Assembly (NCBI GenBank): GCA_003222235.1
Contig: QHVD01000026.1
Span: 1-34,577 of the forward strand
DNA length: 34,577 nucleotides
From: Gemmatimonadota bacterium
Lineage (GTDB): Bacteria; Gemmatimonadota; Gemmatimonadetes; Gemmatimonadales; GWC2-71-9
Reading direction: 5' to 3'
The notes beneath the pieces are model-generated. The model was not told the DNA's origin. It saw nothing but the letters and a program-made list of their open reading frames with translations, and searched no databases. Made by a program: the position numbers and the translations under genes. Below, piece by piece: positions 9,635-28,642 of this stretch. Position 1 is the first letter of the stretch, and each line of letters opens with the position of its first letter.

Positions 9635-9666
9635 TTGCTGGCAGTGGTCTTCGGGATATATTCGGG
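9635..9666 (+). promoter_or_regulatory. Putative sigma70-type promoter (TTGCTG-16-TATATT) with an embedded 19-nt motif TCTTCGGGATATATTCGGG (candidate SOS/LexA-type operator)
   Basis: The 19-mer at 9648-9666 is identical to 13496-13514, upstream of imuB. It contains nTTC-N7-nTTC and a TTCGGG-N5-TTCGGG direct repeat, and it overlaps the -10 hexamer. Confidence 0.45.
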
Positions 9667-12463: not shown

Positions 12464-12886
12464 TCAGGCGACTTCGCTGGCGGTTTTGCCTCGGCGCGCC
12501 CGGTACTGCTGCAGGAACTGTTGGACCCAGCGGGGCGGGGAGAGCCGGCGCGTCTCGTACGCCGCCGCGAGGAGTCCGGCAATCTCGCGCCCGAGTCGCA
12601 TCGTCTGCTGAGGGGAAAGATCCCCCGAGAGCTCATCGAGCAGGCGGACGAGCTGACCGATGTTCGGGGGGCGCGTGACCCGCTGCTGATTGGAGAGCCA
12701 GCGCTCGAGCTTCGCGCGGGTGGCACTGCGGGGAGCCGATCCGTTGAGGAAGTTCCGCAGGCCGTTCGGGCTCAAGGAGATCTGCGCAGCCGCCTGGCGC
12801 AACGAGAGCCGGGCCGTCTCGCGCGCGACGGCATCACGCAAGAGGGGAACTGGGAGCGTCGGGACGTTACGCCGGCCACCACTCAT
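12464..12886 (-). CDS. Uncharacterised HTH protein, paralogue P1 (140 aa)
   Basis: LPVPLLRDAVARETARLSLRQAAAQISLSPNGLRNFLNGSAPRSATRAKLERWL is an XRE-like helix-turn-helix. The C-terminal domain ends ...PPRWVQQFLQQYRARRGKTASEVA*. Confidence 0.7.
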   Translation of the reverse strand: MSGGRRNVPTLPVPLLRDAVARETARLSLRQAAAQISLSPNGLRNFLNGSAPRSATRAKLERWLSNQQRVTRPPNIGQLVRLLDELSGDLSPQQTMRLGREIAGLLAAAYETRRLSPPRWVQQFLQQYRARRGKTASEVA

Positions 12887-12900
12887 TCGGCGGCCCCCGG

Positions 12901-12921
12901 GTGTGCAAGTTGTGCGGTTTG
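12901..12921. promoter_or_regulatory. GTGTGCAAGTT-GTGCGGTTT-G motif upstream of P1, in inverted orientation relative to the P2/P3 copies
   Basis: The plus-strand sequence here resembles the minus-strand reading of the 11785 and 12392 motifs. A TTGCAC-17-TAAGGT promoter-like pair lies on the gene-sense strand just upstream. Confidence 0.3.
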
Positions 12922-13010
12922 CCCGGAGCTACACACCACAACCTTAGCATAACCCGGAGGACCGTGCAACCGGGAACGCCGCCCGTGGGCTCCTCCCCCG
13001 GGGCTCCGCG

Positions 13011-13436
13011 TCACCCCTCGCCCGTCATTGCCGCCGCGAGCGCGCGGATCGGCGTCGGGCGAGGATCAACGCCTCGATACGTCCACGGCAGATCGATCTG
13101 CTCCCTGAACGTCGGCATTTCGGTCCACGAGTTGAACACGTGCGCCACCTCGTGCCGCGCCGGCACCGCGCCTGTGCGCGTCGGTCAAAGAGCTCCGGGT
13201 TGCGCTGTTCGACCGCGTACGGAAATCCCGCGGGAGCCACCGGAAGAAACGGTCGAGCATACGCCGCAAGCACGTCCTCTGAGGGCGGCTCGTAAAACGC
13301 GCTGTCGATCCCCACCCAGGTCGACGCTGAACTCGACGGTGTGCGGGATCCATTTGCCGAGCTCAACCAGGTTCGCTGGAGGAGGCGGCAGCGCGGTGAC
13401 ATCGTCGAAGAAGCGGGGATGGTCCCGGCTGGCCAT
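13011..13436 (-). pseudogene. Decayed gene read in three frames (weak DUF72/UPF0759-like resemblance)
   Basis: Three frames each hold a protein-like piece. One reads MASRDHPRFFDDVTALPPPPANLVELGKWIPHTVEFS. One reads WVGIDSAFYEPPSEDVLAAYARPFLPVAPAGFPYAVEQRNPELFD. One reads VPARHEVAHVFNSWTEMPTFREQIDLPWTYRGVDPRPTPIRALAAAMTGEG*. No single frame is open across the span. Confidence 0.4.
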
Positions 13437-13480
13437 AGAAGTTGAAGTATAGCAACATGTTATCTCTCTAGAAACCGGCC

Positions 13481-13514
13481 TTGCGGCCCTTACAATCTTC
13501 GGGATATATTCGGG
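13481..13514 (+). promoter_or_regulatory. Putative promoter of the imuB-dnaE2 cassette (TTGCGG-18-TATATT) with the same embedded 19-nt motif (candidate SOS/LexA-type operator)
   Basis: TCTTCGGGATATATTCGGG at 13496-13514 is identical to 9648-9666 and overlaps the -10. It lies 20 nt upstream of the imuB ATG. imuB/dnaE2 cassettes are classically LexA-regulated. Confidence 0.5.
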
Positions 13515-13533
13515 TCCCTCTTGGGTGCTCTAG

Positions 13534-14832
13534 ATGGCGCGAAATCACCTGACGAGCTCCTCCGCCGTCTGCTGCTGGATACCGCTATTCGCGCTGCGCT
13601 GCGAAGCGGCGCGGCGACCCGAGCTCGGGTCCCGGCCCAGCGCGCTCGTCGCACCCGACGATACCCGCAGGGTGTGGCAGGTCTCGCCGCTCGCCCGGCA
13701 TGCGGGCGTGAAGCCCGGGATGACCGTCAGCCAGGCGATCGGTCTATGCCACACGCTCCTGCTGTGCGAAGCCGACCCGGTCTATTACGACGAGCAGTTC
13801 GCTCGACTGCTCTCCGCCCTGGGAGCGGTGAGTCCCGTCATCGAGGCGCCCGAGCTGGGCAGGGTGTTCGTGGGGACGGACGGGTTGGAAGGGTTGTATG
13901 GGGGGCCGGAACGGATCGCGGATGCGATCAAGTGCGGAGTGCGGAGTGCGGAGTGCGGAATTTCAATGCAAGCTCGTTCGCCACGACACTCACCTGAAAA
14001 CTCCGCATTCCGCACTCCGCATTCCGCACTCCGGGTGGGGTGGGGCATGGGCAAGTTCGTCTCCTGGGTGGCCGCGACCCGCGCCAAGCCAGGTGGCGCG
14101 GTCATCGTTCGCCCCGGGGAGGAGGGGAAGTTCCTCGCGGCGCAGCCGCTGGCCGTGTTGCCGCTCGATCCGGACACGCACCGCCGGCTGCGGCTGCTCG
14201 GGCTCCGCACGATTGGGGACCTCGCGGCGCTTCCGGAGGAAGCGGTGGTCTCGCAGCTCGGTCGCGCCGGGCGCCGCCTGTGGCGGCTCGCGGCGGGCGA
14301 GACCGCGGAGCGGGTCGTCGGCCGCGAGGCGCCTGAGCCGATCACCGCCGCCATCGCCTATTTCTCTCCGGTTGCCGAGCGGGAACTGCTCGCGCACGCG
14401 CTGGAGCAGCTGATCGAGCGCGCGCTCAGGCACCCGCGCCGCGCCGGCTGGCGGGTACAGGTGCTGCGTGCGCGCGCCGAGCTCGAGCACGGCGCGTCGT
14501 GGCTCGCCGAGGCGACGCTCAAGGACCCGTCGGCGGACCGGGATCGCATCGCCGCGCCGCTCAAGACGCGCCTCGAGCAGGCGCCCCCCACCGGGGCCGT
14601 GGAGCGGCTCGCCGTCGAGTTCACCGGGTTCGCGCCGGGCACCACCGAGCTGCAGCTCTTCGCGCGCGACGCGCGCGCCGCCGCCCGGGCCGGCCGACGC
14701 CGCGCGCTCCGCACCGCCGTCCACGAGATCAAGCTCCGGCTCAAGCGCCCGATGCTGTACCACGTCATCGCCGTCCAGCCATGGTCGCGCATCCCCGAAC
14801 GCCGCTACGCGCTGATCGACTATGAACCCTAG
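13534..14832 (+). CDS. imuB: ImuB, Y-family-polymerase-like component of the ImuB/DnaE2 mutasome; catalytic-fold part only, truncated by a repeat-borne TAG
   Basis: The N-terminus reads AVCCWIPLFALRCEAARRPEL...VSPLARHAGVKPGMTVSQA...DPVYYDEQF...SPVIEAPELGRVFVGTDGLEGLYGG. The gene sits directly upstream of dnaE2. It contains an in-frame ~35-codon repeat insert (CGVRSAECGISMQ...[12 protein letters not shown]). Confidence 0.85.
   Translation: MARNHLTSSSAVCCWIPLFALRCEAARRPELGSRPSALVAPDDTRRVWQVSPLARHAGVKPGMTVSQAIGLCHTLLLCEADPVYYDEQFARLLSALGAVSPVIEAPELGRVFVGTDGLEGLYGGPERIADAIKCGVRSAECGISMQARSPRHSPENSAFRTPHSALRVGWGMGKFVSWVAATRAKPGGAVIVRPGEEGKFLAAQPLAVLPLDPDTHRRLRLLGLRTIGDLAALPEEAVVSQLGRAGRRLWRLAAGETAERVVGREAPEPITAAIAYFSPVAERELLAHALEQLIERALRHPRRAGWRVQVLRARAELEHGASWLAEATLKDPSADRDRIAAPLKTRLEQAPPTGAVERLAVEFTGFAPGTTELQLFARDARAAARAGRRRALRTAVHEIKLRLKRPMLYHVIAVQPWSRIPERRYALIDYEP
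13931..14033. repeat. Hairpin-type heptamer element inside imuB: (AGTGCGG)x4 - 41-nt spacer - inverted 31-mer
   Basis: The left arm is 13931-13958 (+aat). The right arm, 14000-14030 (actccgcattccgcactccgcattccgcact), is identical to 21683-21713. The arms pair with G:T (G:U) wobbles. The element is read through in frame. Confidence 0.9.
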
Positions 14833-14861
14833 TGCGGAATGCGGAGTGCGGAATGCGGAAT
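14831..14861. repeat. 31-nt heptamer element AGTGCGGAATGCGGAGTGCGGAATGCGGAAT (left copy of a perfect inverted pair)
   Basis: The reverse complement of 15164-15194 is identical, 31 of 31. The preceding T plus the element's first AG form the imuB stop TAG (14830-14832). Confidence 0.95.
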
Positions 14862-15125
14862 AGGCCTGACAGGCTTCGGGCGCTAAATGTGCCGCAACGG
14901 GTGGAGGTGGAGCTGGACGAACGCGGGGTGCCGGCGTTCGTGAAACCGAAGACGGGAAACGGGAAACGGATCGAGTCCATCGGCGAGACCTGGCGCATCG
15001 ACGACGAGTGGTGGCGACGACCGATCTCGCGTCGCCATGTCGAGGCGATCCTGGAGAGGGGTAAGCGGGTGGTGCTGTTCGAGGATCTGATGACGGCCGA
15101 GTGGTGGATGCAGATGCCGACATAA
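14832..15125 (+). CDS. Stand-alone ImuB C-terminal domain (split from imuB)
   Basis: LNVPQRVEVELDERGVPAFVKP...IGETWRIDDEWWRRPISRRHVEAILERGKRVVLFEDLMTAEWWMQ matches my recollection of the ImuB C-terminal block (ERIxxEWW...RDY...LFRD...WFLHG). GTG 14832 overlaps the imuB TAG as TAGTG. Alternative starts are ATG 14853 and GTG 14889. Confidence 0.6.
   Translation: MRNAECGMRNRPDRLRALNVPQRVEVELDERGVPAFVKPKTGNGKRIESIGETWRIDDEWWRRPISRRHVEAILERGKRVVLFEDLMTAEWWMQMPT
14952..14970. repeat. AACGGGA-family heptamer array (about 2.5 units) inside the ImuB C-terminal ORF
   Basis: gacgggaaacgggaaacgga encodes KTGNGKR. The same family occurs at 17674-17708. Confidence 0.7.
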
Positions 15126-15126
15126 C

Positions 15127-15194
15127 GCGGCATTCGGAATGCGGCAGCGAAGCCCGACCTTCGATTCCGCATTCCGCACTCCGCATTCCGCACT
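15127..15194. repeat. Hairpin-type heptamer element between the ImuB-C ORF stop and the dnaE2 ATG (degenerate left arm, palindromic spacer, perfect 31-mer right arm)
   Basis: The element reads gcggcattcggaatgcggcag - cgaagcccgaccttcg - attccgcattccgcactccgcattccgcact. It ends one base before ATG 15195. Confidence 0.9.
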
Positions 15195-18100
15195 ATGTAT
15201 ATCGAACTTCACTGCCACTCCGCCTTCTCGTTCCTCGACGGCGCCTCACTCCCCGAGCAGCTCGCGCTCACGGCCGCGCAGCTCGGCTACCCGGCGTTGG
15301 CGCTCACCGATCACAACGGCCTGTACGGCTCGATGGCGTTCGCACAGGAGGCGAAGCACCTCGGCCTGCAGGCGATCACCGGCTCGGAAGTGACGCTGCT
15401 CGACGGCTCGCACGTGACGCTGCTCGCCGAAACGCCCGAGGGGTACGCGAACCTGTGCCGGCTGATCACCGAAGCACATCTGGGCCGTGTCGACCGCCGC
15501 GACCCGCGACTCGACTTCGCTTCGCTCGAGCGGCGGCACGAGGGGCTCGTCGTACTCTCCGGCTGCCGCGCCGGACTGCTCGCAACCGTGCTCGAGAAGG
15601 AAGGCCGCGCCGCCGCCCGGAGGCTGCTTGAGCGCTGCCGTGCCGAGTTCGGGAAGGAGAGCTTCTTCGTCGAGCTCCAGCGCAACCTGGTCCGCGGCGA
15701 TCGCGACCTTACGCGCGCACTCTGCGATCTCGCGGATCGCGTACAACTTGGCGTCGTAGCGACGGGGAACGTGCACTATCACACGCGCGAGCGGCATCGG
15801 CTGCACGACGTGCTCGTCGCGATCCGGCACCGCGCGACGCTCGACGGCTCGCACGACGTGCGGCGACCGAACAGCGAGTTCTCCCTGCGGCCGCCCCAGG
15901 AGGTCGCGGCGCTCTTCTCCGATCGGCCCGACGCGGTCGCGAACACCGGCGTGATCGCCGAGCGCTGCGGGACGTTCGACCTGACGCGCGACCTCGGCTA
16001 CGTCTTTCCCGACTTCCGTGGCGCAGGCCGGACGTCCGCCCCGCAGGCCCTGGCCGAGCTGTGCCGCACGAGGCTAGAGGAGCGCTATCCCCCGGGTTCC
16101 GCCCACCGGGACGAGGCCGAGCGGCGCCTCGAGCAAGAGCTGGCGCTCATCGAGCGCCATCGACTCAGCGGGTTCTTCCTGGTCTATCACGACCTCTTCG
16201 ACCTGGCCCGCGAAGTGGCGGCGGATGTGCGCCGGGGTACCCGGCGGGCCCACGGGAACCTGCTCCCCGGCCGCGGCCGCGGCTCGTCGGTGTCGTCCAT
16301 CGTATGCTACCTGCTCGGCCTGTCGCACATCGACCCGGTCGCGAACCGGCTGTTCATCGGGCGATTTCTCAACGAGACCCTCGCGTCGGTGCCCGACATC
16401 GATCTCGACTTCCCGCGCGAGATCCGCGAGGAGCTGATCCGCCGGGTCTACAGGCGCTACGGCGACGAGCACGTCGGGCTCGTCTGCTCGTTCCCCACCT
16501 ACCGGCTCCGCTCGGCGGTGCGAGAGATCGGCAAGGCGCTGGATCTGCCGCTGGGAGAGATCGAGCAGACGGCGAAACTGGCGGACCGGCGGTCGGGCGG
16601 GGGCGGACTGGCGGACGAGTTGGACCAGCTCCCGGGCTTCGAGGGACGGCGCACGGCCCCGCTCTGGAAAGAGCTTTGCGAGCTGGCCGAGGAGATCACG
16701 GGGCTGCCCCGCCACGTGTCGCAGCACGTCGGCGGGATGATCATCTCGAGCCGGCCTCTCGTCGAGCTCGTGCCGCTCGAGCGCGCGGCGATGGAGGACC
16801 GCGTCGTGTGCCAGTGGGACAAGGACTCCTGCGACGACGCGCGCTTCATCAAGATCGATTTTCTCGCGCTCGGCATGTTGTCGCTGGTGGAGGAGTGCGT
16901 CGAGCTGGTCGCCGCGGGCACGGGGACGCCGCCCGACCTCTCCCGCATTGATTTCGATGACCCCGCGGTCTACGACCGCATCTGCCGCGGCGACACCGTG
17001 GGGCTGTTCCAGATCGAGAGCCGCGCGCAGATCCAGATGATCCGCCGCACCCGGCCGAAGAACCTCGAAGACTTGGCCGTCGAGGTGGCGATCGTGCGGC
17101 CGGGGCCGATCGTGGGCGGCGCCGTGAACCCGTACGTGCGCCGCCGTGAGGCGCAGCGCCGCGCCGAAGCCGAGGGGCGCCGCTACGAGCCGCCGGTGGA
17201 CCACCCGCTCCTGAAGCCCGTGCTGGCGGAGACGCTGGGCGTGATTCTCTATCAGGACCAGGTGTTGCAGGTGTGCCAGGCGCTGGCCGGGTTCACGACC
17301 GGGCAGGCCGAGGCGCTGCGCCGCGCGATGAGCCGCCGGCGCAGCCGCGAGCTGATGGCGGGGTTCTGGGAGGAGTTCAAGGACGGGGCGGCGGCGCGCG
17401 GGGTCCCCGAGTCCGTCGCGCAGCGCGTGTTCACGCAGGTGATCGCGTTCTCCGAGTTCGGATTCCCCAAGTCCCATGCGGCGGCGTTTGGGCTGCTCGC
17501 CTACCAGTCGGCGTGGCTCCGGCACTATCACCCAGTCGAGTATTACTGCGCGCTCTTCAACAACCAGCCGATGGGGTTCTACTCGCTCGACGTGCTCGGG
17601 CGGGACGCGCAGCGCAACGGCATCGAGATCCGGCTCCCGGACGTGAACCGGAGCGACGTGTGGTGCACCATAGAACGGGAAACGGGAAACGGGAAACGGG
17701 AAACGGGGGCGGTGCGGGTGGGGCTCGGGTTCGTCCGTGACTGGAGCGAGGAGACGGCGACCGCCGTCGTGACCGAGCGCGAGCGCAACGGCCCGTTCCG
17801 GAGCGTCGGCGAGCTCGTGCGCCGCGCGCCTCCCAAGCTCAAGCGCAGCGCGATCGAGAACGTCGTGTGGGTGGGCGGGTGCGACGGCTTCGGTCTCACA
17901 CGGCGCGAGCTGTTGTGGCAGATAGGGCTGTGGCTCCCGCCCCGGGAGGAGCGCGGCGGTGACGCACGCGGCCGGCGCCAGCTCGAGCTCGCGCTCAACC
18001 ACCCGCACGAGCACTTGCGCTTCGGCGGCCTGGAGCCGGGCGAGCGGATGCTCGCCGAATACGCGGTGTTGGGGTTCGCGGTGAGCGGCCACCCGCTCGA

Positions 18101-18527
18101 GCTGCTACGCCAGGCGCTGCCGCGCGGGATGGCGAAGAGCGACGCGCTCCCGCGGCTCGAACACGGGACATGGGTCGAGGTGGCGGGCCTCGTGGTCGCG
18201 CGCCAGCGTCCCGAAACGGCGAAGGGGTTCATCTTCGTGCTGCTGGAGGACGAGGCGGGGATGGTGAACGTCATCGTACGGCCGGACGTATTCCAGCAGC
18301 ACCGCGCCGCGATCCGCGGCGAGCCGTTCCTGTGGGTGCGGGGGAAGCTCGCGAAGGACGACGGGACGGTGAACGTGGTGGCGGAGGAGGTGCGGGGACT
18401 CAGACTGAATGCGGAATGCGGAGTGCGGAATGCGGAATCGACGGGCGAGCCCACCATTCCCCATTCACCGTACGCCTTCCTGAAGACGATGCGCCGGGTG
18501 GCGCCGGAATCGAAGGATTGGGGCTAG
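15195..18527 (+). CDS. dnaE2: Error-prone DNA polymerase III alpha-like subunit DnaE2 (ImuC)
   Basis: The PHP domain reads YIELHCHSAFSFLDGASLPEQL...LALTDHNGLYG. Pol III alpha core blocks include GRGSSVSSIVCYLLGLSHIDP, DIDLDF, FQIESRAQ and RPGPIVGG. The protein is 1110 aa and lies downstream of imuB. Confidence 0.95.
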   Translation: MYIELHCHSAFSFLDGASLPEQLALTAAQLGYPALALTDHNGLYGSMAFAQEAKHLGLQAITGSEVTLLDGSHVTLLAETPEGYANLCRLITEAHLGRVDRRDPRLDFASLERRHEGLVVLSGCRAGLLATVLEKEGRAAARRLLERCRAEFGKESFFVELQRNLVRGDRDLTRALCDLADRVQLGVVATGNVHYHTRERHRLHDVLVAIRHRATLDGSHDVRRPNSEFSLRPPQEVAALFSDRPDAVANTGVIAERCGTFDLTRDLGYVFPDFRGAGRTSAPQALAELCRTRLEERYPPGSAHRDEAERRLEQELALIERHRLSGFFLVYHDLFDLAREVAADVRRGTRRAHGNLLPGRGRGSSVSSIVCYLLGLSHIDPVANRLFIGRFLNETLASVPDIDLDFPREIREELIRRVYRRYGDEHVGLVCSFPTYRLRSAVREIGKALDLPLGEIEQTAKLADRRSGGGGLADELDQLPGFEGRRTAPLWKELCELAEEITGLPRHVSQHVGGMIISSRPLVELVPLERAAMEDRVVCQWDKDSCDDARFIKIDFLALGMLSLVEECVELVAAGTGTPPDLSRIDFDDPAVYDRICRGDTVGLFQIESRAQIQMIRRTRPKNLEDLAVEVAIVRPGPIVGGAVNPYVRRREAQRRAEAEGRRYEPPVDHPLLKPVLAETLGVILYQDQVLQVCQALAGFTTGQAEALRRAMSRRRSRELMAGFWEEFKDGAAARGVPESVAQRVFTQVIAFSEFGFPKSHAAAFGLLAYQSAWLRHYHPVEYYCALFNNQPMGFYSLDVLGRDAQRNGIEIRLPDVNRSDVWCTIERETGNGKRETGAVRVGLGFVRDWSEETATAVVTERERNGPFRSVGELVRRAPPKLKRSAIENVVWVGGCDGFGLTRRELLWQIGLWLPPREERGGDARGRRQLELALNHPHEHLRFGGLEPGERMLAEYAVLGFAVSGHPLELLRQALPRGMAKSDALPRLEHGTWVEVAGLVVARQRPETAKGFIFVLLEDEAGMVNVIVRPDVFQQHRAAIRGEPFLWVRGKLAKDDGTVNVVAEEVRGLRLNAECGVRNAESTGEPTIPHSPYAFLKTMRRVAPESKDWG
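17674..17708. repeat. Tandem heptamer array (AACGGGA)x5 inside dnaE2, read in frame
   Basis: gaacgggaaacgggaaacgggaaacgggaaacgggg encodes ERETGNGKRETG. Confidence 0.9.
18408..18470. repeat. 31-mer heptamer element (30/31 to 14831-14861) plus a degenerate inverted arm, in frame near the dnaE2 3' end
   Basis: aatgcggaatgcggagtgcggaatgcggaat (18408-18438) is followed by cgacgggcgagcccacc and then attccccattcaccg. It encodes [21 protein letters not shown]. Confidence 0.85.
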
Positions 18528-18560
18528 CTTTCCAGATAGACTTATAGAGGGAGGTTCTGG

Positions 18561-19109
18561 ATGCCGCAGCACGAAGTTGCGACGCTCGCCGGCGGGTGCT
18601 TCTGGTGCCTCGAGGCCGCGTTCGCGCAGCTAAAGGGCGTAGAGCGGGTCGAGTCGGGCTACTCGGGCGGTCACGTGCCGAGCCCGAGCTACGAGGACGT
18701 GTGCACGGGATCGACCGGGCACGCCGAGGTCGTGCAGATCACGTTCGACCCCCAGGTATTGCCGTTCCGCGACCTGCTCCACGTCTTCTTCACGATCCAC
18801 GACCCGACCACGCCCGACCGCCAGGGAGGGGACGTCGGCACGCAATACCGCTCAGCGATCTTCTATCACACGCCGGAGCAGAAAGCCGAGGCCGGGCAGG
18901 TCATCGCGGAGCTCGAAGCCGAGAAAGTCTGGGACGATCCGATCGTGACCCAAGTGACGCCGCTCGAGAAGTTCTATCCGGCGGAGGAGTACCACCGCGA
19001 TTACTACCGCCGCAACCCGAACCAGGGCTACTGCCGCGCGGTGATCGCGCCGAAGGTCGCGAAGGTCCGCAAGCTCTACCTCGACAAGCTCAAACAGCCG
19101 GTGGCTTGA
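18561..19109 (+). CDS. msrA: Peptide-methionine (S)-S-oxide reductase MsrA
   Basis: Motifs GGCFWCLEAAF, GYSGG and HAEVVQITFDP. A GGGAGG RBS precedes the ATG. Confidence 0.95.
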   Translation: MPQHEVATLAGGCFWCLEAAFAQLKGVERVESGYSGGHVPSPSYEDVCTGSTGHAEVVQITFDPQVLPFRDLLHVFFTIHDPTTPDRQGGDVGTQYRSAIFYHTPEQKAEAGQVIAELEAEKVWDDPIVTQVTPLEKFYPAEEYHRDYYRRNPNQGYCRAVIAPKVAKVRKLYLDKLKQPVA

Positions 19110-19119
19110 GCGAGCGGTA

Positions 19120-20034
19120 TCACGGTTGGGGGCTTGCTGGCACGGCGATCGCCCCCGTCGGCCATTCACCGTCGAGGAAGCGCCGCATTGCCGCCAGGAC
19201 CGGCTCGGGTTGCTCAACGTAGAGCGCATGTCCCGCGCCGGGGAACATCATCAACCGCGCATTGGGCATTCGCTCGGCCCACACCCGCGCCCCTTCCGGC
19301 GGCGCGATGAGATCCCGATCGCCGTGCATCACGAGGGCCTCGGCCGTGATCGAGCCGGCCTGGTCCCGGAAGTCCCACTCGCCCAGCGACCGATCCACGT
19401 GACCATACCACGCAAATAGCTGCTCCGGTCGCTCGTTCGGCAGATCGCAGAAGTCCACCGGGAAACGATCGGCGAGCGCCGGGTCACCCACGTACACCGG
19501 TGCGTTCGCCCTCCAAAACCGGCGGCAAAAGCCCTCCGGGTCGCGCTTGCTCGCACCCGACTGGAGCAGGCGGGCGACCTCCTGCGCGGCCGGCGTCCTG
19601 ACTCGGAGCGCCTTCTCGGGGGGGTTGTAGGAGCGGCCGAGAGCCGCGGAAGGCGCCATAGCGCCGAGCGCAACCAGTCGACTGACACGGTCTGGGTGCT
19701 CCGCCGCGTACACCGCCGCGATCGCGCCGACGTAGGAAAAGCCCACGAGCGCCATGCGCTCGAGTCCGAAGTGGCGTCGCACCGCCTCGACGTCGGTGAG
19801 GTCGTGCGTGATGCCGATCCGCGCGGGGTCGCGCACCGCGTCCGAGCGGCCGCGACCGCGCAGATCGTAGAAAATCAGGCGCTGGCCGTCGGCGAGCGGC
19901 CCGAGCGGGCCCGCGAGGTAGACGGCAAGGGGAACGACGACCGCCTGGGAACCGCTGCCGCAGAGCTGGTAATGGAGGCGCAGGCCCTCTTCGGCCGGTA
20001 GCCAGCCCTCCGAGCGGGCGGCCCCACGCATCAT
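19120..20034 (-). CDS. Alpha/beta-fold hydrolase (proline-iminopeptidase-like)
   Basis: The oxyanion region reads [10 protein letters not shown]. The nucleophile elbow reads [34 protein letters not shown] and GAGH lie near the C-terminus. The ATG overlaps the lhr stop as ATGA. Confidence 0.8.
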
Positions 20035-23000
20035 TCGCGCAGTGAGGCCGGCCGGGGGCGGGGGCGGGGGCGGGTCTTTCCGAGATAGGTCCGCACCAGG
20101 GGCGCCACCCGGCGCTGGACCAACGCGGTCCTGATCTGTTGCTCTGCTTCTGGGCTAGCCTCGACCAGTAACTGCACGCCGCGCCCTTCGCCTTCCTGGA
20201 TCGCGATCGGGATGCCGTCGCGATAGAGCACGTGGTTCGTCGCGACCGCGGGCAGCGGGTTCCCGGCCGTGAGAATGCCGACGAGATTGAGCGGATCCGC
20301 CCCGCTCACCGCGACGAGCTCGCCGCTCGGGTCCTGGCGTCGCACGGAGCGGAGCAGTCCCACCGCCTCTGCAAGCGCGTACTGCTCGCCCGAGAACCCC
20401 GCGACGAAGCGGCCGCCGCGGATCTCGCCGCGCGCCTCGAGCCGGCGGTAGGCCCGCAGGACGTCCCGCCACGGCGGCAGCGGGGATTCACGCGTCACGA
20501 GCCGCCGGAAGACTACGCCGTAGCGTCGGAGCAGCTGCCGGGCGACGGCTTCCGCGACCTGGTCTTCCGGCAAGAGCGTCGACCGCGGCACGCGCGACCA
20601 CCGGCCGGCGGTCTCGACCCCGAACGGCGCGACCTTGCCGTGGCGGCGGAACCCGCCGATCGGCCGGCGCCGGTCGGATGGGACCAGCAGCGCCCGCAGC
20701 CCCGCGAAGCTGTCCGAGGTGACGAGCCCCCAGGCCACGAGCTCGCCGAGGCCCTTCTCGACCTCGGTCCGCAACAGTCCCGTCGCGCTCACGAGATCGC
20801 CGAAGAACGATGCGCCGCGCCGATCGAGCGCGTCGAGTAGCGCCCGCGCCGCGTGCGACAGAGGCAGCTCCCCGGACTCGGGGCTCACCGCGAGCGATCG
20901 CCACACGTCTCCTCGCTCCCGTCGAAACAGCGCGACGGGCGTCGAGCGGACGGGTCCAGCCTTGCGACCCCCCCCACCCCCCCCGCCCCCCCCACCGTTC
21001 AGGATGGTGCGCGGCGCCACTGCGGCGAGCCTCCCCCAGGCGATCTCCCCCGACAGGCAGAGCCCGTCGAGCCACAGGGGATCGTACTCCCGCAACCGCG
21101 CCGGCAGCACGTCCGTCTCCCACGCGCCAGCGGCAACCTCGCACCCGTCGAGCAGGTCGAGCACCGCCGCGAGCCCCTCGGGTCCCTCGGCGCGGGATTC
21201 GTCTGCAACCCGCTGCCACTGGAAGAGGAAGCGGGTGAAGTCGGCGGCGGTGACCGGCTCGATCTCCTTGCGCAGCCGGTCCAGGGTGTAGCGATGAATG
21301 CGGGCGAGGAGGCGGCGCTCGCACCACTCCAGCTCGCTCGTGCCGGGGGTGAACCGGCCGCGCAGCACGAACCCTTCGTGCTCGAGCGCGCCGAGGGCGA
21401 AGTCCACGTCGGCTACCGGCACGCCGAGCGCCGTCGCGACCGCCGCCGCCGTCGTCGGCCCGACAACCTCGAGCCGGCCCCGCACGAGCTCCCGCAGGGC
21501 GTCCTCGCGCGTCCAGCTCCTCGCCCGCTCGCGCTCGGGCGGCGTGAGCGCCGGCTCGCAGCGCGCGCCCGGGAACACCGCCGCGAGCATCGGCAGGCGC
21601 TCGGCCGCAAGCCACAGTCCTGCGCCCGCCTGAAGCACGCCGGCCCGCCCGGCCTGGACGAGCTGCCCGAAATACCCCTGCCACTCCGCATTCCGCACTC
21701 CGCATTCCGCACTCGGGAGGGCACCGGTGACCAGCAACGCATCGTGCAGCTCGTCCGCGGAGCTGACGTCGGGCCAAGCTTCGTCCTTCACCCGGTCGAT
21801 CGCCGCCTGGTCGAGCTTGCCGAGCTCGTCCGCCGTCTTCACGTCGAGCCCGCGGCGGGTGATCACGGCCTGGGTGCGGCGCTCCTCCAGCGGGGCGTCG
21901 TCCAGGAACGCGTACGGCTTCGCGTTCAGCGCCTCGTGCGACAGGGGCGACGGCTCCGCCGTGTCGCGCGCGACGAGCGCGAAGCGCCCCGCCTCCATCT
22001 CCTCGAGCACGCGCTTGAGTCCCGGGAAGTCCATCGCCTCGAGCAGGCAGTCCTCGATCGTCTGCTTCACGAGCGGATGGTCGGGGATCTCCCGGTCGCC
22101 CACCAGGTTCTCGGGGCAGGCGAGCTGATCGGGAAAGATCGCCGCGACCAGGTCTTCGGCCTCCATCCGCTGCAGCGGGGTGGGCACCTTCTTCCCACCG
22201 CGCTGGCGCAGCACGGCAAGTGCCCGGGTGGCGTTCCAGCGCCAGCGTGACTGGAACATCGGCGCGTCGAGCATCGCCTGGACGAGCAGCCCCTCGACCG
22301 TCGCGGGCTTCAAGTACTGGAATACGTCCTCGAGCGGGAAGCTGTGCTGAGGCCCGAGCGAGAGGACGATCGCATCCTCGGTCGCCGCGGCCTGCAGCTC
22401 GAAATTGAAGCTGCGGCAGAAGCGCTTCCGCAGGGCGAGCCCCCAGGCCCGGTTGACCCGGCTCCCGAACGGCGCGTGCAGCACGAGCTGCATCCCGCCT
22501 GCCTCGTCGAAGAACCGCTCGACCACGATCGTCTGCTGCGTCGGGATCACGCCGAGGATCTGCTTCGAGGCAGCGAGATACTCGACCATCTGGCGCGCGG
22601 CGGGCTCCGGGAGCCCCGGGATCTCGCGACCCACCCACGCCACGGCCGACTGGGGATCCGCGAGCCGATCGGAGATGTCCTGGCGCAGCCGCGACACGGC
22701 CTCCGACAGCTCCGCCGTGCGCGCCGGCGCCTCGCCGACCCAGAACGGGATGGACGGCGGCTGCCCCTGCGCGTCCACGACCCGCACCTGGCCCGACTCG
22801 ATCTTGCGAATGAGATAGGAGGTGTTGCCGAGCTGGAAGACGTCGCCCGGCATGCTCTCGATCGCGAAGTCCTCGTTGAGCGTGCCGACGAACGTGTCGG
22901 TGGGCTCGAGCACCACCCGGTAGTCGCCGATGTCGGGGATGGCCCCTCCCGACGTTATCGCCGCGAGTCGGGCGCCGCGACGGGCCCGCAGCCGGCCGTT

Positions 23001-24425
23001 CACCCCGTCATAGTGAACGTAGGCGCCGCGCCGGCCGCGCCGCGTGGTGAAGCCCTCGGCGAGCATCTGCACGACGTCGTCGAAGTCCTTGCGCGAGAGG
23101 TCGCGGTAGGGATAGGCGCCGCGCACGAGCTCGTACAGCGCCCCTTCGTCCCACTCTTCGCATGCCACCGCCGCCACGAGCTGCTGAGCCAGGATGTCGA
23201 GCGGGCGCCCCGGGATGATCAGCCGGTCGAGCCGGCGCTCGCGCGCGGCGCGGACCAGCGCCGCGCACTCGATCAGCTCGTCACGCGACAGCGGAAAGAT
23301 CCGCCCCTTGGGTACCGCTCCGAGGTGATGTCCCGACCGGCCCACCCGCTGCAGCAGCGTGGCGATCGAGCGCGTCGAGCCGATCTGGCAGACCAGGTCC
23401 ACCGCGCCGATGTCGATCCCGAGCTCGAGCGACGCCGTGGCGACGAGCGCCTTGAGCTTTCCCTCCTTGAGCCGCTGCTCCGCCTCGAGGCGCTTATCAC
23501 GAGACAGGCTGCCGTGATGCGACGTGACGTGCTCGGCGCCGACGCGCTCGGAAAGGTGCATCGTCATGCGCTCGGCGAGCCGGCGGGTGTTCACGAACAC
23601 GAGTGTGGTGCGGTGTTCGCCGATGAGCTGGGCCAATCGGTCGTACAGCTCCTCCCACACTTCCGCCGCCATCACCGCCTCGAGCGGCGAAGAGGGGATC
23701 TCGATCGCGAGGTCGAGCTGCCGGGCGTGGCCCGAGTCGATAATGCAGGTGTCGGGTGTCGGGTGTCGGATGCCCGCCAGGAAAGCGGCGATCTCCTCGA
23801 TCGGCTTCTGGGTCGCGGACAGACCGATGCGCTGGAGCGAGCGGCCCGCCAGATGCTCCAGCCGCTCGAGAGAGAGCGCGAGGTGGCTGCCGCGCTTGTC
23901 CCGCGCCACGGCGTGGATCTCGTCCACGATCACCGTGCGCACCGTGCGGAGCATCGCACGCGCGTTTTGGGACGTGAGGATGAGATACAGCGACTCGGGA
24001 GTCGTGACGAGGATGTGCGGCGGACGCTTCGCCATCGCCTGGCGGTCGGGCTGCGGCGTATCGCCCGTGCGAACGAGCGTGCGGATCTCCACGTCAGGCA
24101 GGCACAACTGCTCCAGCGTGCCGCGGATCTCGGCGAGCGGCTCGGCGAGGTTCTTCTGAACGTCGTTCGAGAGCGCCTTGAGGGGAGAGACGTACACCAC
24201 CTGGGTCTCGTCCCCCAAGGTGCCGTCCAGCCCCTGACGAAGCAGGGAATCGATCGCGGCGAGGAACGCCGCGAACGTCTTCCCCGAGCCCGTGGGGGCC
24301 GCGATCAGCGCGTGCCGGCCGGCCTGAATGATCGGCCAGGCGCCACGCTGCGGCTCGGTCGGATCGCGGAACCGCGACTCGAACCAGCGCGCGACGACGG
24401 GATGGAAGCCGGAGAGCGTCATCAC
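20031..24425 (-). CDS. lhr: Large ATP-dependent helicase Lhr (SF2 DEAH, Lhr core plus long C-terminal region)
   Basis: Motifs [35 protein letters not shown] and LELGIDIG...RVGRSGH. The protein is 1464 aa. It carries the in-frame inserts [11 protein letters not shown] and G10, and an RPRPRPRP tail. Confidence 0.9.
20053..20074. repeat. (CGGGGG)x3+ hexamer array encoding the RPRPRPRP tail of Lhr
   Basis: The sequence reads ccgggggcgggggcgggggcggg. Confidence 0.85.
20968..20996. repeat. (C8-N)x3 nonamer array encoding a Gly10 run in Lhr
   Basis: The sequence reads ccccccccaccccccccgccccccccacc. The homopolymer runs of 8 are also error-prone in sequencing. Confidence 0.85.
21683..21713. repeat. 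31-mer heptamer element (inverted orientation) in frame inside lhr
   Basis: actccgcattccgcactccgcattccgcact is identical to 14000-14030 and matches the reverse complement of 14831-14861 at 30 of 31 positions. Confidence 0.9.
23748..23769. repeat. (GGTGTCG)x3 heptamer array in frame inside lhr
   Basis: ggtgtcgggtgtcgggtgtcgg encodes HPTPDT on the minus strand. Confidence 0.85.
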
Positions 24426-24508
24426 ACCATTCTATGGCGAAAATTTACCGAAGGGGAGGGGCATGAACGCGGCGAACAGCCAGCAAACAGCATTAAACAG
24501 TATAATAG

Positions 24509-26867: not shown

Positions 26868-27542
26868 TCAGGGCATCGCCTCGCACGAGACGGAATCCGA
26901 GCCAAGCGCGATCGCCTCGAACGACGCGACGAGCGACGACCGCCCGGTGGTCCCGACCTCGACCCCGGTGCCGTGCGCCGTGATCCTCAGCCGGCCGGCC
27001 CTGCGGCCGACCGAGACCGTACCGCTGTCCACCCAGAGGCCGTGCGCGACGTCGCCCAGCATGAAGCGCACGGCCACCACGGCCCCGCGCGCGGCTATGG
27101 TGTCGCCCCGCTCGAGCAAGGAGAAATCCCCCGCTGCCAGTGAATCGCCCGAGCGCAACCAGACGAGCACGCCGTTGCCGCCCTGGGTTCCTCGGATCAG
27201 CACTCCTCTCCCGACCCCGCCCCCCCCCGCCGCACGACGGCATCGGCCTGCGCTGGCGGGCGCATCGAAGCGGACCGTGTCTCGGGGCGGGTGGGTGACC
27301 TGCGCGCGCAGCCGCGCGGCGGGCTGCAGCGAGTTGCCGCAAGCAGTGCCCGCGACGGCGAGCGCGCACAGCGCGAGGCCGCGACCGCTCAGGGGGAGGG
27401 GGAGGGGGAGGGGGAATCCGCGCCGAGCAACGCGCGCGCCGCTGCTGGCGGCAGGGTGTGGGGAGCGAGCGCGTCGATCAGGTCGGCGGGCAGGGGTCGA
27501 GACTTGAGGTGCTTGCGATCCACGCACACGAGCACCATCCAC
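26868..27542 (-). CDS. Secreted protein or possible lipoprotein of unknown function; start uncertain
   Basis: The signal-like segment is SGRGLALCALAVAGTACGNS. The only ATG/GTG starts (27542, 27527) give a ~45-aa pre-signal extension that overlaps the thioesterase gene. CTG at 27392 would give MSGRGLAL... and a CTGA overlap with the thioesterase stop. Confidence 0.5.
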   Translation of the reverse strand: MDGARVRGSQAPQVSTPARRPDRRARSPHPAASSGARVARRGFPLPLPLPLSGRGLALCALAVAGTACGNSLQPAARLRAQVTHPPRDTVRFDAPASAGRCRRAAGGGGVGRGVLIRGTQGGNGVLVWLRSGDSLAAGDFSLLERGDTIAARGAVVAVRFMLGDVAHGLWVDSGTVSVGRRAGRLRITAHGTGVEVGTTGRSSLVASFEAIALGSDSVSCEAMP

Positions 27543-27868
27543 CCCGCGGCCACGAGCCCGGACCCGGGCGCCCGCAGCACGTCGAAGTTCAGGGTCATCG
27601 ACTTCGTGCCGACCCGGCCAACGTATGCGGCGACCGTCAACCGGTCGTCCAGCCGCGCGGGCGCGTAGAACTCGCTATGGACCGCTTTCCGGGGCAGGAA
27701 GATGTCGTAGCGATCGAAGACCCGCGTGTAGGCGAGGCCGCACGAGCGGAACAGCTCGGTCTCGGCGATCTCGAAGAACCGCACGTACGACCCGTAAAAA
27801 ATGATGCCCGCGAAGTCTACGTCGGACCACCGGACGTACTCTTCGATGATATACGGCGTGGCGGGCAT
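27389..27868 (-). CDS. Acyl-CoA thioesterase, 4HBT (YbgC-like) hotdog fold
   Basis: The protein reads MPATPYIIEEYVRWSDVDFAGIIFYGSYVRFFEIAETELFRSCG...KSMTLNFDV. The tail SPSPSPSP* is encoded by the (GGGGGA)x4 array. Confidence 0.8.
   Translation of the reverse strand: MPATPYIIEEYVRWSDVDFAGIIFYGSYVRFFEIAETELFRSCGLAYTRVFDRYDIFLPRKAVHSEFYAPARLDDRLTVAAYVGRVGTKSMTLNFDVLRAPGSGLVAAGWMVLVCVDRKHLKSRPLPADLIDALAPHTLPPAAARALLGADSPSPSPSP
27392..27415. repeat. (GGGGGA)x4 hexamer array
   Basis: The sequence reads gggggagggggagggggaggggga. On the minus strand it is read as SPSPSPSP (thioesterase frame) and PLPLPLPL (downstream ORF frame). Confidence 0.9.
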
Positions 27869-27944
27869 CGCGTCCCGACCGGTGGAGCCCGAGCGGGAAG
27901 CTAGGGTAGGTAAAACGCCGACGCCAGGATCGGCGGGTCGGCGG

Positions 27945-28438
27945 TCAGGCGCGCGCGGCGGAGCTAGCGCCTCCGTGCCCGTTGTGGCGCAGGCCGTAGG
28001 CGCGCAACCGGCGCCACAGCGTCGTGCGACTGATGCCGAGGCGCCGCGCGGTCTCGGCGAGCGCCGCGCCGTCTCGGCGAGCCTCCCGCCGGTAACCTCA
28101 AGAGTGTCGACGATCGCCTGCCGCTCTCGCTCGGCCAACGTCTTCGCGTGGTCCCCGTCTGCCAGGAAGATGGCCTCACCCAGGTCGGTGGGGCCGTGCT
28201 TCAGCGCGCGGACCCGGCCGCCGAGCGCCACCAGGCGCTCCCGGAGCGCCGGGCCGCGCACGAAGGCAGGGTCGCCGAGACTGTCGATCAGCCTGCGGGC
28301 GCGGTGGTTCGCGTACAGCATCCGGCCATGGGTGTCGAACACTACGACTCCTTCGCTGAACGACTCCATCACGGCTTGGCCGATGGGGGCGAAGGTGGGC
28401 GGTGACGGGAGCATTGGGCCCTTCTCTCGCGTTGCCAT
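27945..28438 (-). pseudogene. Small PAS-like + Fis-type HTH (HTH_8) regulator, disrupted by a 20-bp tandem duplication
   Basis: The N-terminus reads MATREKG...AVMESFSEGVVVFDTHGRMLYANHRARRLI...ERERQAIVDTLEVTGGRLAETARR and then goes out of frame. Removing one 20-nt unit restores ...AETARRLGISRTTLWRRLRAYGLRHNGHGGASSAARA* with its stop at 27945-27947. As sequenced, the frame runs into the thioesterase ORF and forms the 366-aa track ORF. Confidence 0.7.
28041..28080. repeat. Tandem 20-bp duplication (19/20 identical)
   Basis: The units are gcgccgcgcggtctcggcga and gcgccgcgccgtctcggcga. Confidence 0.95.
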
Positions 28439-28642
28439 ACGTGATTGGATACTCGGAATGGGGGTCAGAGTTTCAGGCAGCGCCGCCATAAGGAGGACCC
28501 TCAGAGTGGTGCGACGTCACAACTCGGGTGCGCCCTGAACGACCACTCTCCCCCTCCCTAAGTTAAGCCCGGCTCGCGTAGTGTGAGCGCCACAGGGGTG
28601 CGCGCCAGGGCGAGCGCCGTCTCCCAGGGCGCCGCGTCAGGG

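Follow-up and report, generated by a model that had tools for sequence, protein, structure and literature searches.

What are tandem repeats with a seven-base unit doing inside the genes of induced mutagenesis? This question is raised by a 34,577-nucleotide (nt) stretch of a Gemmatimonadota genome (contig QHVD01000026.1; hereafter, the window; 70% G+C), in which short arrays of a GCGGA-containing heptamer lie in and around imuB, dnaE2, and lhr. Tandem heptamer repeats have been known for decades (in cyanobacteria, Geobacter, and Beggiatoaceae) without a demonstrated function, and the present locus offers a rare handle on their role. A preliminary description of the window had reported a nearly invariant 31-nt element that colonizes coding DNA and is concentrated on DNA-damage genes; the observation is confirmed, and its interpretation is partly supported. 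The copies are very probably the arms of a family of hairpin-forming repeats, with the G-rich arm always 5′ and the C-rich arm always 3′. Comparison with related loci shows that these repeats were fixed in the ancestor of the clade at several sites in lhr and in the imuB-small open reading frame (ORF)-dnaE2 segment, and have been kept since as pairing partners. More tentatively, the stems may act as cis-acting mRNA structures that couple or damp expression of the mutasome, a function that we infer from the anatomy of the locus and to which we assign a probability of roughly 0.4.

The window comes from a soil-type metagenome scaffold of 36 kb (ENA ERZ28573639). A search of it with the 31-mer, allowing up to three mismatches, returned exactly six sites with zero to two mismatches each, whereas 0.00 were expected from 100 shuffles. 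Five of these, at 14000(-), 14831(+), 15164(-), 18408(+), and 21683(-), lie where the preliminary description had placed them. The sixth, 13931-13961(+), had been listed there as a variant arm but qualifies as a full site, and the other variant arm, at 15127-15147, proved real. The 14-mer RTGCGGARTGCGGA occurs 18 times, always within the six array sites (0.16 expected). According to Tandem Repeats Finder, the copies are arrays of period 7 or 14 with 4.1-4.9 units of A[G/A]TGCGG; an arm is thus made up of about 4.4 tandem heptamers, in each of which a GCGGA core is combined with two variable positions. Of the six copies, four lie within conserved reading frames (two in imuB and one each in dnaE2 and lhr), in keeping with the reported location in coding DNA, and the other two sit exactly at gene boundaries. 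As had been stated, the heptamer is free of stop codons in all six frames, and long ORFs indeed continue through the copies; the recurring peptides named earlier are present in DnaE2 and Lhr, and SAFRTPHSA is present in ImuB. Pfam searches confirm the identities of all three genes, and no copy was found in the other ~27 kb of the window. The copies are arranged as three convergent pairs (+ then -), two of which are true partners. The third, 18408(+) with 21683(-) over 3.3 kb, was rejected as a pair, given that the two sites often carry different units in relatives (L152, L188).

The first true pair lies within imuB and forms hairpin 1 (13931-13961 with 14000-14030), whose 29-bp stem has a predicted minimum free energy of -82 kcal/mol as RNA (z -7.1) and -50.6 kcal/mol as DNA (z -7.9). 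The second forms a long-range stem of 32 perfect base pairs (14830-14861 with 15164-15194); folding of the interval between the imuB stop and the dnaE2 start gave a z of -6.1. One end of this stem lies at the imuB stop codon and the other at the nucleotide preceding the dnaE2 ATG; the small ORF that it encloses has its called ATG (14853) inside the 5′ arm. In addition, the short arm at 15127-15147 pairs locally with the 15164 array (z -3.3). Intrinsic terminators were considered for these structures and rejected: the printed flanks carry no T run 3′ of the arms, either for the window or for 44 hairpins of other phyla.

A search of related genomes and metagenomes revealed that the element recurs at fixed sites in related loci and is also present in other phyla. 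The comparison set comprised 85 related loci from a soil group of Gemmatimonadales, in which L122-L125 were obtained by exact-protein look-up, L122/L123 deriving from assemblies GCA_009771655.1 and GCA_009772095.1, and L126-L205 by a metagenome scan with the ImuB alignment. With a threshold of at least 3.4 units, 259 arrays were counted inside imuB through dnaE2 and lhr (360 kb), as against none in the remaining 462 kb of flanks, a more than 100-fold enrichment in induced-mutagenesis genes. The earlier claim of a bias toward DNA-damage genes therefore holds within this clade; it fails in other Gemmatimonadales and other phyla, where the arrays accompany unrelated housekeeping genes. The conserved sites are the imuB internal hairpin, the imuB stop, the interior of the small ORF, and the position just before the dnaE2 ATG; dnaE2 around residue 830 and the dnaE2 tail, the latter often as a local hairpin pair; and Lhr around residue 905 and sometimes around residues 1120 and 1400. 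The array load is two for imuB, two for dnaE2, and two for lhr (three in some relatives).

What is conserved at these sites is pairing rather than sequence, and in this respect the notion of a nearly invariant 31-nt element does not stand, since relatives carry other seven-base units. Across loci, the main sites hold GGARTGC, GGAACGC, GGATTGC, or GGTGAGC, and the partner arm changes alongside; in the imuB hairpin, the unit is GGARTGC, GGAACGC, GGATTGC/T, or an octamer, and the opposite arm is always its complement. In a set of 51 distinct arm pairs, pairing holds for 90.5% of cells, and both sides have changed in 12 of 28 pairs; double changes amount to 139 cells versus 57.6 ± 5.7 in shuffles, a value reached by none of 500 shuffles. 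The covariation is partner-specific: unit type matches in 46 of 49 imuB hairpins and 35 of 41 long-range pairs, as compared with 24 of 43 for the two G-rich arms of the same locus. Four unit types occur in the long-range stem, which 44 of the 55 distinct loci retain, and its placement is narrow: relative to the imuB stop, the 5′ arm begins at -3 to +8 nt, and relative to the dnaE2 ATG, the 3′ arm ends at -1 to +13 nt. Of the 85 loci, 82 carry the imuB hairpin in frame; its insert, measured as the stretch between two conserved ImuB motifs, is 81-180 nt long, a multiple of 3, and free of stops. Within length classes, identity is 0.81-0.87 in the spacer and ~0.9 in the arms, whereas flanking imuB third codon positions reach 0.61-0.62, showing that the hairpin DNA is conserved above silent sites, which are near saturation at this divergence. 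In the 85 loci, the arrays serve as pairing partners or are at least maintained in that state, including arms ~330 nt apart.

Table 1. Genes, stem arms, and repeat arrays of the window
Feature	Position	Strand	Remarks
ImuB-type inactive Y-family polymerase	13534-14832	+	Pfam IMS domain
G-rich 5′ arm of hairpin 1, AGTGCGG x4.4	13931-13961	+	in frame in imuB; codes KCGVRSAECGI
Spacer of hairpin 1, 38 nt, small apical stem	13962-13999	+	common to the intergenic copy at L059
C-rich 3′ arm of hairpin 1	14000-14030	-	in frame in imuB
G-rich 5′ arm of long-range stem	14831-14861	+	overlaps imuB stop TAG (14830-14832); holds ATG 14853
Small ORF, 90 aa as called	14853-15125	+	enclosed by long-range stem
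Short local G-rich arm	15127-15147	+	just 3′ of small-ORF stop; alternative partner for 15164 array
C-rich 3′ arm of long-range stem	15164-15194	-	last base directly before dnaE2 ATG (15195)
DnaE2	15195-18527	+	Pfam PHP/pol3-alpha/OB fold
AACGGGA x4.9 array, second unit family	17674-17707	+	in frame in dnaE2; codes ETGNGKRETG
G-rich array, dnaE2 C-terminal tail after OB fold	18405-18438	+	in frame; partner ~18455-18475 degenerate here, intact in some relatives
Lhr	20031-24425	-	Pfam DEAD/DEAD_assoc/WH_Lhr
Single array, lhr aa ~905-915	21683-21713	-	G-rich on lhr sense strand, in frame
GGTGTCG x3.4 array in lhr, further unit family	23746-23769	+	C-rich on lhr sense strand; same site in a few relatives

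Two further mechanisms were tried against the related loci. Inversion of the 14831-15164 DNA segment was rejected, as the small ORF has the same orientation in all 79 tblastn matches. Ribosomal bypassing of the imuB insert was rejected likewise, because the insert is stop-free and always a multiple of 3.

The geometry of the long-range stem, which runs from a stop codon to a start codon, predicts translational coupling of ImuB, the small ImuB-C-like protein, and DnaE2. The 32-bp stem would tie the imuB stop to the dnaE2 start and would thereby bury the starts of both the small ORF and dnaE2. A ribosome reaching the imuB stop would melt the outer turns of the stem, freeing the bases just upstream of the dnaE2 ATG; the two downstream starts would then be opened mainly by ribosomes that finish imuB, so that production of the mutasome subunits is coupled and the catalytic subunit, DnaE2, is produced only when ImuB is. 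The in-frame stems of ~30 bp within imuB and the dnaE2 tail may in turn serve as brakes or as targets for a double-strand RNase, and such brakes would keep basal expression of the error-prone polymerase low. If the stems do govern mutasome expression, they would constitute a new control layer of stress-induced mutagenesis in an abundant soil phylum.

That the role is exerted at the level of the transcript is favored by two kinds of polarity. Even though dnaE2 and lhr lie on opposite strands, the G-rich side of a single array falls on the sense strand of its gene in 35 of 38 arrays and at five of six sites. Arrays are moreover polar relative to stop codons across phyla, as seen in a wider set compiled by scanning one genome per prokaryotic species for GCGGARTGCGGARTGCGGARTGCGG, which gave at least 120 stretches (L001-L120). 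Among the matches listed, 35 of 129 arrays in the G-rich orientation start within a few nt of the stop of an ORF of at least 80 codons, the corresponding figures being 8 of 131 when the orientation is C-rich and 4% for random positions; 21 of 52 hairpins start no more than 40 nt after an ORF end (12% at random positions).

Several observations weigh against a function of the stems in mRNA. The dnaE2-tail (18405-18438) and lhr (21683-21713) arrays have no partner and no significant local fold in the window, so a hairpin role cannot cover all copies. Truncated imuB hairpins occur in ~10% of lineages, and the long-range stem is missing in 11 of 55 distinct loci, which indicates that the stems are dispensable. 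In ungapped arm comparisons, G.U appositions (54) do not differ significantly from A.C appositions (38) and so do not distinguish pairing in RNA from pairing in DNA; folding is slightly stronger for the sense than for the antisense strand (43 of 58). The operator-like box of imuB and lhr is also present at a radical SAM gene of the window that has no array, which also counters the simple form of the regulon tag proposed in the preliminary description. The compared sequences are kin, and counts across loci are therefore not independent events; likewise, the arm windows in the covariation test on 51 pairs were picked for best complementarity. Finally, arm pairing could be maintained without selection, through fold-back copying between the arms.

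This last point opens onto a close rival to the mRNA-structure reading, namely that the arrays are selfish or neutral repeat DNA, of the kind represented by repetitive extragenic palindromic (REP) sequences, Rickettsia palindromic elements (RPEs), and miniature inverted-repeat transposable elements (MITEs), kept paired by arm-to-arm copying. Such DNA would have been copied into tolerant sites of non-essential damage genes without any function for the cell, and only in-frame, stop-free copies would have survived; the complementarity of the arms would stem from slippage within arrays, quasi-palindrome template switching, and arm-to-arm conversion. We regard this as a serious possibility, though on the whole a doubtful one. 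The near equality of G.U and A.C appositions is what would be expected if mismatches were transient and not filtered by RNA wobble pairing, and the truncated and one-armed copies fit as well. It is harder to reconcile with the absence of arrays from 462 kb of flanks that contain many intergenic regions, with spacer conservation well above that of silent sites, and with the placement of arms exactly at stop and start codons. Furthermore, pairing is partner-specific even at ~330 nt, yet direct copies ~850 nt apart have not been homogenized.

The distribution of the family across genomes bears on this alternative. Among the matches listed, the array lies beside unrelated genes in Acidobacteriota, Verrucomicrobiota, Planctomycetota, Gemmatimonadota, Chloroflexota, Actinomycetes, several gut metagenome-assembled genomes (MAGs), Firmicutes and Bacteroidia among them, and one archaeal MAG, of Thermoplasmatota, and 40 stretches from viral contigs carry it. 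In the same matches, period-7 arrays number 301, versus at most 19 for periods 5, 6, and 8-12 and 108 for period 4, about half of the 301 being the query matches themselves; they fall into 87 unit classes with a median of ~4 units. An inverted partner lies within 600 nt of 52 of 135 query-type arrays, with the G-rich arm 5′ and the C-rich arm 3′ in 52:0, a strict topology that fits descent from one element type. In other Gemmatimonadales, arrays adjoin hflX, dtd/glmS, acrB, tgt/ruvB, and ksgA. A bias toward DNA-damage genes across phyla was rejected, in that tblastn of the window ImuB, DnaE2, and Lhr against the 120 array-bearing loci yielded no real homologs. The flank duplications of 52 arm-pair views (~44 distinct hairpins) were no longer than in random controls, and this lack of target-site duplication speaks against the selfish alternative.

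Mobility of the composite is nonetheless indicated by one locus from a Gemmatimonadales MAG, L059, in which positions 2480-2680 of the minus strand hold a cassette of arm, spacer, and arm whose homology to the imuB hairpin includes the spacer. The cassette lies between the end of a cupredoxin-like gene and the next gene (a weak ZIP-transporter match), and its presence between unrelated genes shows that the arm-spacer-arm composite can be copied to new places. Its type-A spacer is shared by 30 imuB loci and L059 and by no other among ~160 array-bearing loci, and viral contigs gave no match to it. Two side observations concern the settings of such arrays. In L062, a Saprospiraceae MAG, a GGAATGC array (minus strand, ~2188-2212) directly follows the 3′ end of an apparent tRNA gene (GGTTCGAATCCCTGTCTCTCCGCT), which may be a hint about insertion sites. 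In L001-L120, the GGARTGC array of many loci is accompanied, a few tens of nt away, by another array built from a different heptamer (ATCCGCA, TCCGAAA, CTTCGTC, CCTCGAC, GAAGGGC, and others), which suggests that heptamer arrays cluster in these genomes.

Within the proteins, the copies in imuB and lhr differ in how they appear to have arisen. The closest ImuB homologs (73-99% identity, 416-460 aa) are all from Gemmatimonadetes MAGs, all end in ...RYALIDYEP, and all hold the segment that hairpin 1 encodes. This stretch of ~25-33 aa is not present in homologs at 30-58% identity, so the imuB copy is a clade-specific, derived insertion in a protein loop, as would be expected of selfish DNA; a 7-aa periodic signal was not found in distant ImuB representatives, by a test that is insensitive for 10-aa tracts. 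The Lhr array tract, in contrast to a simple insertion, has the same length in 20 of 21 relatives aligned over their full length (L182 has two additional residues, in frame), and the sequence of the Mycobacterium smegmatis Lhr structure aligns over it without net insertion (the aligned pair includes LTEADIAQRCTAD). The lhr copy therefore looks like a replacement, in which a native segment was overlaid without a change in length, and this argues against the selfish alternative. The dnaE2-tail array sits between the OB fold and a conserved C-terminal tail. Should the repeats prove selfish, the locus would nevertheless provide a clear case, outside Rickettsia, of palindromic repeats carried in frame inside proteins.

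The same frame data dispose of phase variation, in which imuB, dnaE2, or lhr would be turned on or off by frame shifts whenever an array gained or lost a single 7-nt unit. The idea draws on the occurrence of tandem units that are not a multiple of 3 within coding DNA, and heptanucleotide switching is known elsewhere, for example, in the Haemophilus hmw genes. Here, however, all 82 anchorable imuB copies are in frame, Lhr length is unchanged in all but L182, and unit number is nearly constant; because the reading frame is invariant at the imuB and lhr arrays, we reject this explanation as extremely improbable.

The make-up of the units raises the possibility that the arrays are phased binding sites, in which a multimeric protein would recognize GCGGA at 7-nt intervals, whether in single-stranded RNA, single-stranded DNA, or duplex DNA, and the hairpins would hide or expose the sites. 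All GCGGA-type units at the main sites retain GGA..GC and vary at two positions, and the sense-strand polarity of single arrays is compatible with such a protein, as is array length: among the matches listed, query-type arrays peak at 30-33 nt (135 arrays, ~4.4 units, many phyla), unlike a slippage distribution. There is precedent, too, in that reporter expression in Nostoc is affected by the heptamer repeats at recF/recO, for which a binding partner has been proposed (bioRxiv 10.1101/2022.06.06.494920), and a binding protein has also been proposed for TAACTGA repeats (PMC4679880). Set against this are the coreless units found at conserved sites (GGGAAAC, GGTGTCG, GGTGAGC, and the octamer GGAACGAT), the locking of most arrays in very stable duplex stems, and the position of the arrays away from promoters, where a separate operator-like box sits; no candidate protein was identified. 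Binding sites are thus, in our estimation, a rather unlikely explanation.

The confinement of arrays to the mutasome genes and lhr in the 85 loci could instead be the footprint of the mutasome itself, with slippage and template switching by DnaE2/ImuB near their own damage-induced genes laying down and renewing both arrays and fold-back partners. The lhr array, which looks like a templated replacement of equal length, would suit this idea, and heptanucleotide units have been suggested to mirror the contact length of a polymerase (Mrazek 2007, as cited in PMC4679880). Were it true, the unexplained bacterial heptamer repeats, which date from 1990, would be a polymerase signature. However, the dnaE2-lhr interval, which holds msrA and a hydrolase gene, is array-free, and neither msrA nor any other intervening gene carries an array in the 85 related loci; the radical SAM gene that shares the box lacks one likewise. 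Moreover, the identical unit recurs at separate sites, which requires copying over de novo slippage, and array positions are inherited and not recurrent. Arrays also occur in a Thermoplasmatota MAG and in gut Firmicutes and Bacteroidia MAGs, which are unlikely to have imuB-dnaE2. We therefore consider a mutasome footprint very unlikely.

The genes around the repeats offer further detail. The small ORF enclosed by the long-range stem contains a WRIDDEWW... motif and is similar to P0206, a longer ImuB homolog, over the C-terminal ~40 aa of the latter (E 1e-11, pairwise), indicating that ImuB and its C-terminal module are separate ORFs in this clade; it had no Pfam or NCBIfam family match. It holds an in-frame GGGAAAC x2.9 array at 14950-14969, and this array and the one in dnaE2 at 17674-17707 both code for TGNGKR-type peptides. 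When G-quadruplex terms were included in ViennaRNA, a three-layer RNA G-quadruplex was predicted for the dnaE2 array at 17674 (-12.3 vs -5.0 kcal/mol) and none for the GGARTGC arrays. Upstream of imuB, imuA was not found (12464-13533). The XRE-type helix-turn-helix gene there (140 aa, 12464-12886, minus strand) is conserved in synteny, and the 650 nt between it and imuB hold no called gene in the window and one or two DUF72 genes in relatives. Other G-rich tracts are present as well: three G8 runs with a period of 9, coding for poly-glycine, in the lhr C-terminal region (20967-20996, minus strand); CGGGGG x3.7 at the lhr 3′ end (20053-20074); and AGGGGG x4.2 (27391-27415) at the 3′ end of the gene at 27389-28489 (minus strand).

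A direct-repeat box, CTTCGG-N-WWWWW-TTCG, occurs three times in the window, versus 0.01 expected. It lies upstream of the radical SAM gene (9649-9664, plus strand), ~25 nt upstream of the imuB ATG (13497-13512, plus strand), and just upstream of the lhr start (24438-24453, minus strand), and it is kept upstream of imuB in nearly all related loci. The best NCBIfam match of the radical SAM gene is the Rv2578c family, below the cut-off of that family. The box is a candidate SOS/LexA-type operator that resembles GTTC-N7-GTTC boxes.

How, then, does the element compare with known repeat systems? The preliminary description had likened it in concept to STRR (short tandemly repeated repetitive) sequences, REP sequences, and MITEs while recognizing no described family, and both judgments were apt. 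Rfam gave no match to the arrays at the gathering score, and at E ≤ 1 only generic long-hairpin models (eukaryotic microRNA precursors) far under their cut-offs; six exact 18-mers of the array appeared in no paper of the literature searched, in which heptamer repeats turned up only as analogues (Geobacter, STRR/TAACTGA, and Nostoc). Among these, Geobacter metallireducens contains GC-rich elements with four tandem heptanucleotides, GGACCGG (Gmet_H4##), which are found between and inside genes and for which a regulatory RNA role was proposed, not shown (Aklujkar et al. 2009, PMC2700814). The window arrays share the number of about four tandem 7-nt units and the occurrence in genes as well as between them, with more than one array to a gene. 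They differ in the unit (GGARTGC, GGAACGC, GGATTGC, GGGAAAC, and GGTGTCG as opposed to GGACCGG), and inverted pairing, partner covariation, and a gene-class bias are unreported for the Geobacter elements, which come from one genome only.

STRR heptamers and TAACTGA direct repeats form dispersed arrays of two to six units that are shared over distant phyla (MacGregor 2015, PMC4679880), and in Nostoc heptamer repeats adjoin recF/recO, which are genes of DNA repair, and alter reporter output (bioRxiv 10.1101/2022.06.06.494920). The likeness lies in the short, dispersed tandem heptamer arrays and, for Nostoc, in their position beside DNA-repair genes. However, the cyanobacterial and TAACTGA repeats are AT-rich, lie mostly upstream of start codons, and neither form long hairpins nor run in frame in genes; STRR units (CCCCAGT and others) are unrelated to those of the window, and the host clade here is Gemmatimonadetes and not the heterocystous cyanobacteria.

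With REP sequences and the bacterial interspersed mosaic elements (BIMEs) built from them, the element shares arms of ~30 nt, inverted pairs that form stable stem-loops after genes, and a high copy number. A REP sequence is an imperfect, extragenic palindrome with a GTAG/CGTC head, and its known roles are in mRNA stability or termination. A single array of the present element, in contrast, is a direct tandem repeat and not palindromic, the printed flanks contain no GTAG/CGTC head, and four of the six window copies lie inside conserved reading frames. MITEs resemble the element in their terminal inverted repeats, the arms here being ~31 nt long and always G-arm first, but the absence of target-site duplication over random controls in the 52 arm-pair views sets it apart. 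RPEs, reportedly described by Ogata and colleagues in 2000, are said to be ~100-150 nt long, to lie in frame in protein genes, and to be translated as surface loops; they are spread over many gene classes. The imuB insert is likewise palindromic and always in frame, and more distant ImuB proteins (30-58% identity) lack it; the RPE sequences belong to unrelated families, however, and have no heptamer arrays.

A likeness of another kind is to the coat-replicase junction of phage MS2, where a downstream start is buried by pairing with the upstream cistron and opened by upstream translation. The stop-to-start geometry of the long-range stem fits such coupling; the stem predicted here differs in being unusually long and perfect, built of tandem repeats, and wrapped around an entire small ORF. 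As the element has some defining features of each known repeat kind but fails at least one of each, it is not placed in any named family. In kind, it is a heptamer-repeat or REP-like element.

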